A stretch of DNA of 3,255 nt. It comes from a virus (taxonomy: Duplodnaviria; Heunggongvirae; Uroviricota; Caudoviricetes). Both the position numbers and the translations under genes were made by a program. Positions 1-3,255 of the stretch are shown here, piece by piece (the stretch's first letter is position 1; every line of letters begins with the position of its first letter). The notes beneath the pieces are model-generated. The model was not told where the DNA came from and made no database searches. It worked only from the letters and a program-made list of their open reading frames with translations. Location of the stretch: the IMG/VR virus record IMGVR_UViG_2563366800_000004; one strand, written 5' to 3'.

Positions 1-216
1 ATGAAATCCATGGATAAGTTAACAACGGGCATTGCCTACGGCACCTCCGCAGGCAGTGCTGGCTACTGGTTTTTACAGCTGCTCGATAAAGTCACGCCCT
101 CACAGTGGGCAGCAATAGGTGTGCTGGGTAGCCTGGTATTTGGCCTGCTGACGTACCTGACAAACCTTTATTTCAAGATTAAAGAAGATAAGCGCAAGGC
201 TGCGAGAGGTGAATAA
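1..216 (+). CDS. S: Class II holin (pinholin) of the phage 21 S type, 71 aa, with dual-start motif
   Basis: ORF 1-216 translates to [71 protein letters not shown]. By recall this closely resembles the phage 21 S holin and the essD-type holins of E. coli cryptic prophages. Two in-frame start codons (ATG 1-3 and ATG 10-12) are separated by a Lys codon, giving the Met-Lys-Ser-Met dual-start arrangement. Two hydrophobic segments are followed by a basic C-terminus ([13 protein letters not shown]). The stop TAA (214-216) overlaps the next ATG (216-218). The gene begins at base 1, so its upstream promoter and RBS are not visible. Confidence 0.9.
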
Positions 217-713: not shown

Positions 714-751
714 GCAGGGTACCGGCGATCCGGCGCGTGAGTTCACCATGA
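710..751 (+). pseudogene. Rz (i-spanin) start stump: 13 codons then stop
   Basis: ATG at 710-712 overlaps the endolysin stop TGA (711-713) as ATGA, the usual R/Rz arrangement. The first codons (ATGAGCAGGG, Met-Ser-Arg) resemble the lambda Rz start as I recall it, but the frame stops at 749-751 and the downstream sequence is capsid-gene 3' end. No Rz1 lipoprotein ORF is present. Confidence 0.45.
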
Positions 752-816
752 TTCAGTCAGCACCGCTGATGCTGCTGGCTGATCCTGATGAGTTCGTGTC
801 CGTTCAACTGGCGTAA
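721..816 (+). pseudogene. 3' terminal fragment (about 31 codons) of a lambda-E-like major capsid protein gene
   Basis: In the frame with codons at 724, 727 and onward, the sequence reads GDPAREFTMIQSAPLMLLADPDEFVSVQLA and then TAA (814-816). This matches my recollection of the C-terminus of the lambda major capsid protein gpE. There is no start codon and no upstream capsid sequence; homology appears to begin near 719-724. Confidence 0.6.
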
Positions 817-818
817 TC

Positions 819-836
819 ATGGCCCTTCGGGGCCAT
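819..836. other. Intergenic stem-loop: 7-bp perfect stem ATGGCCC/GGGCCAT closing a TTCG tetraloop
   Basis: Read directly: ATGGCCC (819-825), TTCG (826-829), GGGCCAT (830-836), which are exact reverse complements with a C-G closing pair on a UUCG loop. It lies between the capsid-gene stop (816) and the FI RBS (848-854) and is followed by a moderately T-rich stretch TGTTTCTCTGTGG. Confidence 0.5.
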
Positions 837-857
837 TGTTTCTCTGTGGAGGAGTCC

Positions 858-1256
858 ATGACGAAAGATGAACTGATTGCCCGTCTCCGCTCGCTGGGTG
901 AACAACTGAACCGTGATGTCAGCCTGACGGGGACGAAAGAAGAACTGGCGCTCCGTGTGGCAGAGCTGAAAGAGGAGCTTGATGACACGGATGAAACTGC
1001 CGGTCAGGACACCCCTCTCAGCCGGGAAAATGTGCTGACCGGACATGAAAATGAGGTGGGATCAGCGCAGCCGGATACCGTGATTCTGGATACGTCTGAA
1101 CTGGTCACGGTCGTGGCACTGGTGAAGCTGCATACTGATGCACTTCACGCCACGCGGGATGAACCTGTGGCATTTGTGCTGCCGGGAACGGCGTTTCGTG
1201 TCTCTGCCGGTGTGGCAGCCGAAATGACAGAGCGCGGCCTGGCCAGAATGCAATAA
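858..1256 (+). CDS. FI: Lambda FI-like DNA-packaging / head assembly accessory protein, 132 aa
   Basis: From ATG 858-860 the protein begins MTKDELIARLRSLGEQLNRDVSLTGTKEELALRVAELKEELDD, which matches my recollection of lambda gpFI; stop TAA at 1254-1256. RBS GGAGGAG (848-854) lies 3-5 nt upstream. The ORF track's longer form from 819 starts inside the hairpin and lacks an RBS, so 858 is preferred. Confidence 0.85.
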   Translation: MTKDELIARLRSLGEQLNRDVSLTGTKEELALRVAELKEELDDTDETAGQDTPLSRENVLTGHENEVGSAQPDTVILDTSELVTVVALVKLHTDALHATRDEPVAFVLPGTAFRVSAGVAAEMTERGLARMQ

Positions 1257-1761: not shown

Positions 1762-2671
1762 GTTATACGAGGTGTATAACAACGGATATCCAACAGCGTA
1801 TGGAAATATCATTCACCTGAAAGGGATGACAGCCGTTGGCGAAGGTGAGTTACTCATCGGCTGGAGTGGTACAAGCGGTGCTCATGCTCCGGCATTTATT
1901 CGTTCACGACGGGATACGACCGACGCAAACTGGTCGCCGCGGGCGCAGCTTTACACCTCGGCTCATCCTCCTGCAGAGTTTTATCCAGTCGGCGCACCAA
2001 TCCCGTGGCCATCAGATACCGTTCCGTCTGGTTATGCCCTGATGCAGGGGCAGACTTTTGACAAATCTGCCTACCCGAAACTTGCAGCCGCTTATCCGTC
2101 AGGCGTGATCCCTGATATGCGTGGCTGGACGATTAAGGGCAAGCCCGCCAGTGGTCGTGCCGTATTGTCTCAGGAACAGGACGGCATAAAATCGCATACC
2201 CACAGCGCCAGCGCATCCAGTACTGATTTGGGGACGAAAACCACATCGTCGTTTGATTACGGCACTAAATCCACGAATAACACTGGTGCGCATACCCATA
2301 GTTTAAGTGGCAGCACGAATGCAGCTGGTAATCACAGCCATAGAGATGGCCGTCGATTTAACCCCAGTGTTTTTAAAGATACTTATCAATATGGTTATAC
2401 AAGCTCAGGTCAAAATACCTGGGGTGTACAAGGCTCAGTAGGTATGTCTACGGGGGCGTTAGCTAATACCAGTACAGATGGTAATCATAGCCACTCACTG
2501 TCCGGCACCGCAGCATCTGCAGGTGCACACGCACATACTGTCGGTATTGGTGCTCATACGCACTCCGTTGCGATTGGTTCACATGGACACACCATCACCG
2601 TTAACGCTGCTGGTAACGCGGAAAACACCGTCAAAAACATCGCATTTAACTATATTGTGAGGCTTGCATAA
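1727..2671 (+). pseudogene. stf: C-terminal ~314 codons of a side tail fibre (Stf) gene, including the receptor-binding tip with HxH motifs; no start codon of its own
   Basis: The frame with codons at 1730, 1733 and onward reads ...[23 protein letters not shown]...[56 protein letters not shown]...[31 protein letters not shown] and stops at TAA 2669-2671. The PIPWP block and the [11 protein letters not shown] terminus are as I recall for lambda/Rac-type Stf C-termini. The frame stays open upstream only as far as a TTG at 1649 inside the Z stump, with no convincing RBS. The first in-frame ATG (1826-1828) has GGG immediately adjacent, which is poor spacing. Confidence 0.8.
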
Positions 2672-3255
2672 TGGCATTCAGAATGAGTGAACAACCACGG
2701 ACCATAACAATTTATAATCTGCTGGCCGGAACTAATGAATTTATTGGTGAAGGTGATGCATATATTCCGCCTCATACAGGTCTGCCAGCAAACAGTACCG
2801 ATATTGCACCGCCAGATATTCCGGCTGGCTTTGTGGCTGTTTTCAACAGTGATGAGGCATCGTGGCATCTCGTTGAAGATCATCGGGGAAAAACCGTCTA
2901 TGACGTGGCTTCCGGCGACGCGTTATTTATTTCTGAACTTGGCTCGTTACCGGAAAATGTCACCTGGTTATCGCCGGAAGGGGAATATCAGAAGTGGAAC
3001 GGCACAGCCTGGGTGAAGGATACGGAAGCAGAAAAACTGTTCCGGATCCGGGAGGCGGAAGAAACAAAAAACAGCCTGATGCAGGTAGCCAGTGAGCATA
3101 TAGCGCCACTTCAGGATGCTATAGATCTGGAGATCGCAACGGAGGAAGAAACCTCATTGCTGGAAGCCTGGAAAAAATATCGGGTGTTGCTGAACCGTGT
3201 TAATACAACAACTGCACCGGATATTGAATGGCCAACAGTACCCATTATCGAATAG
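2671..3255 (+). CDS. tfa: Tail fibre assembly protein (Tfa), 194 aa
   Basis: ATG 2671-2673 overlaps the stf stop (TAATG). The protein [54 protein letters not shown]...[30 protein letters not shown] matches my recollection of lambda Tfa (orf-194) with scattered substitutions. RBS-like GAGG (2659-2662) lies about 8 nt upstream. Stop TAG at 3253-3255 is the last codon of the window. Confidence 0.9.

Follow-up and report, generated by a model that had tools for sequence, protein, structure and literature searches.

Hairpins located between the major capsid gene and the gene that follows it have already been annotated in phages N15 and HK225. In N15, a stem_loop at 7053-7073 carries the label 'putative rho-indep. 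transcription terminator', and in HK225 a terminator is recorded at 7009-7028. In both phages, the element lies in the gap between the homologues of lambda genes E and FI, and it consists of a 7-bp stem with a GGCCC/GGGCC core and a 4-nt loop, followed downstream by CTTTCTGGAG. The hairpin described here has the same location and architecture and is the same element, save for a compensatory change of an outer pair from A-U to G-C. It differs in the loop, which is AUUC or UGUC in N15 and HK225 and UUCG here, and in the distance of the stem from the capsid stop codon, which is 9 nt in those phages and 2 nt here. No experimental test of the function of the hairpin downstream of E, whether in N15, in HK225, or in phages of the lambda type, was found in the literature.

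Similar elements have been described in P22-like and lambdoid phages, where terminators are found inside a single operon antiterminated by Q or gp23, at the end of the procapsid module (PMC8022706). In the case of phage L, the roles suggested for them are partial termination or the stopping of transcription that has not been antiterminated, and the authors state that these roles are not known (PMC8022706). Unlike here, the capsid protein encoded upstream of those terminators belongs to the family of P22 gp5 and not to that of lambda E, and the sequences are unrelated. As a sequence feature, the element is consequently already known, both through its annotation in N15 and HK225 and as a member of a recognised class of hairpins located within late operons.

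Other known systems resemble the hairpin in the way in which it might work. Newbury et al. in 1987 and Chen et al. in 1988 reportedly demonstrated by experiment that the half-life of an mRNA is affected by REP, between malE and malF of E. coli, and by the puf hairpin of Rhodobacter capsulatus. As here, the cistron with the stronger expression is closely followed on its 3′ side by a stable hairpin, and the mode of action is a block to exonucleases that results in segmental stability. Nevertheless, the effect on half-life was shown in those systems, while we infer it here; furthermore, the sequences are unrelated, and the stem studied here is shorter. The likeness is a resemblance that may point to a working mode, and it does not imply membership. 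In phage T7, the leaky terminator T-phi is located directly after capsid gene 10 and enriches the capsid mRNA relative to the genes downstream. Here too, a terminator-type hairpin directly follows the major capsid gene. However, T-phi acts on T7 RNA polymerase and terminates most transcripts, whereas the late operon of lambda is transcribed by an antiterminated host polymerase. Finally, hairpins of the cUUCGg (UNCG) type are said, following Tuerk et al. in 1988, to be extra stable. The hairpin considered here has the UUCG loop and the C-G closing pair of that type (C825-UUCG-G830), which is a structural motif and not a functional family.

The stretch of DNA that was analysed (the window, 3,255 nucleotides) is a decayed lambda-like prophage found at the lambda attachment site (ybhC...bioA) in the chromosome of E. 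coli PCP06171 (locus L001, 8001-11255). Its neighbours in this chromosome include int, xis, and IS3, the last of which lies just upstream of the window. The window begins with essD (1-216) and rrrD (216-713), after which a few codons from the start of an Rz-like gene (about 710-720) are fused to a stub of E (721-816, plus strand). This stub, which retains the last 31 codons of the major capsid gene and its TAA stop codon (814-816), has a translation that ends in ...SAPLMLLADPDEFVSVQLA* and is recorded in RefSeq as an incomplete pseudogene with a missing N-terminus. Next come FI, encoding DNA-packaging protein FI, which is intact (858-1256, plus strand; RefSeq WP_000158919.1) and corresponds to lambda Fi at 7202-7600; FII, also intact (1268-1621); a stub of Z (1633-1725); a tail-fibre remnant (1895-2671); and tfa (2671-3255). 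Thus, there are two internal deletion joints, one between the start of Rz and the 3′ end of E (about 713-721) and another between the Z stub and the tail-fibre remnant (about 1725-1895). Positions 721-1300 are 99.7% identical to lambda 7065-7644. The exact arrangement of the prophage was found in only one of 5426 complete genomes. A match to Rfam IS009 (RF02111), with 222 bits against a gathering score of 117, was also observed inside tfa (3014-3212, plus strand).

The 41-nt gap between E and FI is occupied by the hairpin, which therefore lies between the remnant of the capsid gene and FI, as the first-pass annotation had proposed. The sequence itself, a repeat finder, and a terminator scan all place it at 819-836 of the plus strand, where the 5′ arm ATGGCCC (819-825) pairs with the 3′ arm GGGCCAT (830-836) across a TTCG loop (UUCG in the RNA; 826-829) closed by the pair C825-G830. 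The perfect 7-bp stem, the loop, and the C-G closing pair that had been reported are all confirmed, and the stem does start 2 nt past the capsid stop codon. By contrast, the ribosome-binding site of FI is closer than the 20 nt or so first estimated: its Shine-Dalgarno sequence, GGAGG (848-852), begins 11 nt after the stem, and it is the ATG of FI (858) that is found 21 nt downstream. This Shine-Dalgarno sequence, whose GGAG is retained in the aligned relatives, precedes the ATG by 5 nt, and the space between it and the stem is filled by an interrupted U-rich tail, TGTTTCTCTGT (837-847). In lambda, the identical hairpin is found at 7163-7180, a site at which the RefSeq record has no annotated feature. 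A search of the whole window with Rfam 15 gave no gathering-level match to a curated RNA family at the hairpin; within 700-950 there were sub-threshold chance matches only, the best overlapping one being PhotoRC-I, with 14.2 bits against a cut-off of 45.

Folding of the RNA, one of the checks suggested at the outset, indicates that the hairpin forms stably. In isolation, it has an energy of -12.9 kcal/mol (z = -3.65), and none of 200 shuffled sequences folds as well. Moreover, its five G-C core pairs remain paired with a probability of 0.96 or more when up to 300 nt of flanking sequence is included at both sides, in the window as well as in lambda. Nevertheless, its energy alone is unremarkable. 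The 71-nt region that surrounds it (800-870) folds no better than its shuffles (z = -0.92), and 53.5% of dinucleotide-shuffled whole windows hold a perfect hairpin that is at least as stable. Terminator-like sites are also not in clear excess, as the scan of the window returned 4, where 2.6 +/- 1.9 are expected. Two equally good perfect-stem hairpins are found within coding sequence on the plus strand, at 1552-1575 in FII and at 1688-1708 in the Z stub. The second of these is also present in lambda Z (8032-8052), with one loop base different, and another perfect-stem hairpin that is at least as stable lies on the opposite strand of essD (33-55, minus strand). What exceeds chance is the position of the hairpin and its conservation. 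Since window-wide stability is not significant, the case for the element rests on these two properties.

Conservation was assessed in loci with relatives of lambda E that were gathered from a phage collection, from one genome per bacterial species, and from viral contigs, the last including a profile search led by a distant homologue. Scans of the viral contigs with single proteins returned almost only identical sequences, and the diversity of the set comes from the per-species scan and from the profile led by the distant E homologue. There were 326 loci, of which 300 had an E stop codon and at least 90 nt of downstream sequence; these represent 94 distinct downstream contexts. The statistic used was the most stable perfect-stem hairpin starting at most 38 nt past the E stop, ranked against windows of the same width from its own locus. 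The terminator located between D and E is covered by these control windows, which makes the ranking conservative. By contrast, the percentile of the whole-window minimum free energy (MFE), which was at or below 0.05 in 30%, was dropped as a measure of conservation, as G+C-rich coding windows fold well and render it too blunt.

By this ranking, the hairpin is kept in the relatives of lambda, which is the outcome expected from the first-pass annotation: in 86% of the 94 contexts it ranks within the best 5% of its own locus, and in 93% within the best 10%. Even among the seven contexts classed as weak, at least four have a hairpin whose stem is imperfect or lies slightly further downstream. The sequences of the stems are diverse, with 15 unrelated cores found in prophages of Escherichia, Kluyvera, Erwinia, Vibrio, and Pseudomonas and in phage Chi. 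For instance, the lambda/N15 clade has the core GGCCC, PhiR12_1-type phages share GGGGC with some other viral contigs, 569R10 has GAGUC-GAAA, and phage Chi has CCGCC...GGGCGG, while Vibrio phage K242 has a 10-bp stem and Pseudomonas-type prophages have GC-only stems, with others besides. Distant relatives retain the hairpin in front of downstream genes that are quite different.

Some of the records in which lambda E was found deserve a separate comment. Many assemblies from unrelated organisms (L090-L105 and L124-L162), such as those of Chromatium, Neobacillus, Kitasatospora, Paenibacillus, Bradyrhizobium, Shewanella, Corynebacterium, and Enterococcus, include short contigs of low coverage that match lambda E with 100% identity. 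These contigs are almost certainly contamination with lambda control DNA. Likewise, MW057783.1 ('Campylobacter phage CJLB-4', 48,361 bp) has an identity of 99.7-100% with lambda in the stretches that were compared, and it seems to be a lambda sequence under a wrong name.

Within the lambda clade, the five pairs of the GGCCC/GGGCC core are invariant in 35 distinct sequences, although the flanks can hardly be aligned. The outer pairs, 819-836 and 820-835, covary; one of them is U-A in 22 cases, C-G in 6, and U-G in 1, and the other is A-U in 15, G-U in 10, and G-C in 4. Cells in which both sides are changed number 14, against 7.0 +/- 2.3 in shuffles, a value reached by only 2 of 500 shuffles. 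In agreement with this, the hairpin between E and FI is the sole consensus structure that RNAalifold returns for 25 diverse junctions of the clade. The loop is more variable. UNCG loops are present in 38 of 48 distinct variants (TTCG in 28, TGCG in 6, and TCCG in 4), and the remaining 10 have other loops; in the N15/phi80/HK225 type the loop is AUUC, UGUC, or UUUC, and distant relatives carry unrelated ones. The hyperstable UUCG configuration stressed in the first-pass annotation is therefore present but inessential: since the N15/phi80/HK225 type has other loops, the identity of the tetraloop is preferred and not required.

These comparisons bear on whether the element acts as an RNA at all. 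It could instead be a chance palindrome, a palindrome in the DNA that is bound by a protein, or a conserved linker at the boundary between mosaic modules. The frequency of equally stable hairpins in shuffled windows agrees with such a reading, as does the end of the homology between lambda and the HK225/phi80 type, which falls near the hairpin; in addition, the invariance of GGCCC...GGGCC could reflect a constraint on the sequence rather than on the structure. However, a palindrome without function in RNA would not lead one to expect 15 unrelated stems at the same position in distant relatives or compensatory changes in the outer pairs, and the U-rich tail is found on the sense strand only, given that the hairpin on the minus strand is followed by GATTACGCC. 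From these sequence comparisons, a reading without RNA function appears to be largely refuted, and we consider it scarcely credible. The same lack of a U-tract on the minus strand led to the rejection of a bidirectional terminator.

Considering its anatomy, the element is most likely an RNA stem-loop of the intrinsic-terminator type, which is probably leaky. Its perfect 7-bp stem, with five G-C pairs and a 4-nt loop, is the G+C-rich stem-loop of such terminators, and it is followed by UGUUUCUC (UGUUUCUCUGU), a tail that has five U in its first eight nucleotides, although interrupted, and that passes a simple terminator scan. An approximate d'Aubenton-Carafa score of -3.5, against a threshold of 0, is borderline and only rough, as modern energies were used. 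The initial description of a tract too moderately U-rich for a strong terminator was thus reasonable. Besides, the element is not at the end of a transcription unit, since FI and, further on, the tail genes follow it on that strand within the late operon. Among relatives, five or more T in the first eight nucleotides after the stem are found in only 48 of 87 contexts. The tails range from U8 (L155) and U5-U6 (L131, L273, L140, and L260) down to no U-tract, with the stem abutting the next Shine-Dalgarno sequence, in several contexts (L154, L158, L248, and L249), including Pseudomonas-type prophages. The hairpin is thus the constant feature, with a competence for termination that seems to vary among relatives. 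Nevertheless, many relatives have a canonical U-tract, the longest being U8, and this suggests selection for real termination as well.

The hairpin is not the only one in the late operon of lambda, in which every gap of at least 40 nt (within 1-22600) holds one. Between D and E, and thus upstream of E, there is a canonical terminator (6097-6118; locus L003, 533-554) composed of an A-tract, a GC stem, and a U-tract, which reads AAAGGCCGC-CUGU-GCGGCUUUU then UUU and ends in U7. Further hairpins are found after L (L-K gap, 14157-14184), with -17.0 kcal/mol; after I (I-J gap, 15462-15483), with a stem ending in UUUU; after J (J-lom gap, 18920-18935), where the hairpin is weak; and after lom (lom-stf gap, 19612-19633), where there is a strong terminator. 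The 655 intergenic nucleotides (2.9%) of lambda 1-22600 contain five of its 21 strongest hairpins on the plus strand, for which the binomial probability is about 3e-4. In this packed operon, gaps seem to exist only where a hairpin sits. In 86% of 101 distinct contexts, a hairpin equivalent to that of the D-E gap, with A-tract, GC stem, and U-tract, ranks within the best 10% of its locus. Hence, E is bracketed by hairpins in nearly all relatives.

It is possible, if rather unlikely, that the function for which the E-FI hairpin is selected is real termination of polymerases that have not been modified by Q. It would then be one of a series of insulators against spurious or read-in transcription of structural genes in the lysogen or before Q acts, and would be ignored in the late lytic phase. 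A role of this kind was among those proposed for the terminators of phage L (PMC8022706). It would account for the result of the terminator-like scan, for the annotation of the homologous stem-loops of N15 and HK225 as rho-independent terminators, for the canonical U-tracts of many relatives, and for the fact that all sizeable gaps in the late operon have a hairpin, whether or not the gene before them is an abundantly expressed one. On the other hand, the U-tract of lambda is interrupted and its score borderline, several relatives have no T-run, and phage Chi, which is reportedly virulent, has the hairpin too. Furthermore, the stem is so close to a heavily translated stop codon that a terminating ribosome would be expected to cover its 5′ arm.

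Late transcription of lambda, initiated at pR′, requires Q, and this protein renders the polymerase resistant to terminators across the operon. The resulting late transcript is roughly 26 kb long. Each head requires very many copies of both D and E, in roughly equal amounts of about 400 each. These facts weigh on the possibility that the hairpin is an attenuator in lytic growth, such that part of the late transcription stops there and the ratio of capsid protein to FI is set at the transcriptional level. Its terminator-like anatomy and its place directly after the most abundant structural gene fit such a role. In other phages, leaky terminators that balance expression have been found by long-read transcriptomics to be common, and the inefficient terminators of T7 have been cited as examples (PMC9163698). 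Nevertheless, the U-tract is weak, transcription must still reach the tail genes, all of which are downstream, and polymerase modified by Q resists terminators. Moreover, the same logic applied to the far stronger terminator between D and E would wrongly cut the expression of E. Since a working D-E terminator would starve E, which is made in amounts similar to those of D, both this element and the E-FI hairpin must be overridden during lytic growth. The attenuation proposed by the first-pass annotation is thus unlikely, and we regard it as improbable for lambda in general.

The hairpin could also act on translation, either by uncoupling initiation at FI from the ribosomes that terminate at E or by shaping this initiation together with a second local hairpin (837-868, plus strand). 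In this second structure, the U-tract pairs with codons 2-3 of FI (AAAG at 863-866, and A868) and the AUG of FI is buried. It is part of the MFE fold of 800-870 in both lambda and the window, where it covers the AUG and part of the Shine-Dalgarno sequence, and a similar pairing between the U-tract and GAAAG can be drawn in N15, HK225, and phi80. However, RNAalifold drops it from the consensus of the 25 junctions, for which reason it was rejected as a conserved element that sequesters FI. In addition, the distance from the stem to the Shine-Dalgarno sequence varies widely among relatives, and the hairpin is kept by distant relatives despite the change in the genes downstream. A translational role is therefore held to be very improbable. 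The low abundance of FI, taken for granted at first, was only an assumption, and the Shine-Dalgarno sequence of FI is near-consensus.

Two further candidates were considered at the junction. An N-terminally extended FI could start at the ATG at 819, within the 5′ arm of the stem (open reading frame 819-1256), but no more than 27 of 46 distinct relatives have a stop-free start in this frame, and 10 of the 46 lack any start codon at the equivalent position; this start was rejected. The record of phi80 (L087, 1603-2055) does place the beginning of FI within the stem, at the equivalent GTG, which is probably a wrong start call. The other candidate, an Hfq-dependent small RNA from the 3′ end of E, is unsupported by RIL-seq of E. 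coli infected with lambda, which identified three Hfq-bound small RNAs of the phage, PreS/LPR1, LPR2, and 6S, none of them at this position (bioRxiv 10.1101/2024.10.31.621285). The early left operon is the source of PreS, and neighbouring sites in the late operon give rise to LPR2 and 6S, with 6S ending at a terminator that is antiterminated by Q (bioRxiv 10.1101/2024.10.31.621285).

The explanation we prefer, tentatively and at somewhat less than an even chance, is that the hairpin is read through by Q-modified polymerase and serves as a 3′ barrier to decay of the capsid mRNA. Stable stem-loops at the 3′ end of an RNA impede PNPase and RNase II, and, for one situated close behind a cistron, blocking such exonucleases once the RNA has been cut downstream is the role with the best support. 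In the proposed sequence of events, Q-modified RNA polymerase would read through the E-FI hairpin, as it would through the others of the late operon, and the hairpin would then form on the free transcript behind the polymerase. Following endonucleolytic cuts downstream, it would block 3′-to-5′ exonucleases, with the result that the segment containing E, and likewise that of D behind its own hairpin, would outlive the downstream segments from FI to the tail genes. For polymerase that has not been modified, termination at the hairpin would be only partial because of the weak U-tract. A barrier of this kind and an insulating terminator, which is its main rival, are compatible and do not exclude each other.

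Several observations bear on a role in mRNA decay. As in the puf and REP systems, a stable hairpin with a conserved position is found directly 3′ of the stronger cistron, and, by this analogy, a role as mRNA stabiliser is plausible. The proposal also agrees with the finding that terminator hairpins raise the abundance of the transcript upstream (PMC11696848), and the constancy of the hairpin in relatives whose U-tracts differ speaks for it too. Against it, five G-C pairs and -12.3 kcal/mol make a modest barrier. Nor is the set of hairpins in the late operon specific to highly expressed genes, as L and I, whose proteins are not abundant, also have one at their 3′ side. Moreover, Sampson et al. 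in 1988 reportedly ascribed the differences in expression among late genes mainly to translation initiation, which leaves less room for control through mRNA stability.

A more specific form of the read-through and decay-barrier reading is that the two hairpins around E, together with the one after D, form a dedicated device, in which endonucleolytic processing and 3′ protection would carve stable mRNAs for D and E out of the late transcript, and the invariant GGCCC-UNCG-GGGCC of the lambda clade would be specifically recognised, for instance by an RNase or an RNA-binding protein. We consider this proposal doubtful. If it were true, the stoichiometry of the capsid would be set by segmental stability of the mRNA.

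In the window itself, any of the roles discussed is not likely to be in operation. Q, pR′, and most of E are absent, and a simple scan found no promoter-like site on the plus strand upstream of essD. Because E has been cut to 31 codons and Q, pR′, and a recognisable upstream promoter are missing, the hairpin is here a fossil, a relic inherited unchanged from a lambda-like late operon. For the same reasons, the setting of a ratio between capsid protein and FI, suggested at first for this DNA, does not apply to it. The finding is of little import for the window, where the hairpin is a piece of lambda sequence inherited in a dead prophage. The E-FI junction is also very common, being shared by 3163 of the 5426 complete E. 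coli genomes.

More generally, almost every phage with a capsid gene of the lambda E type keeps a hairpin directly after that gene and a canonical terminator directly before it, and these hairpins bracketing E constitute a clean comparative observation.
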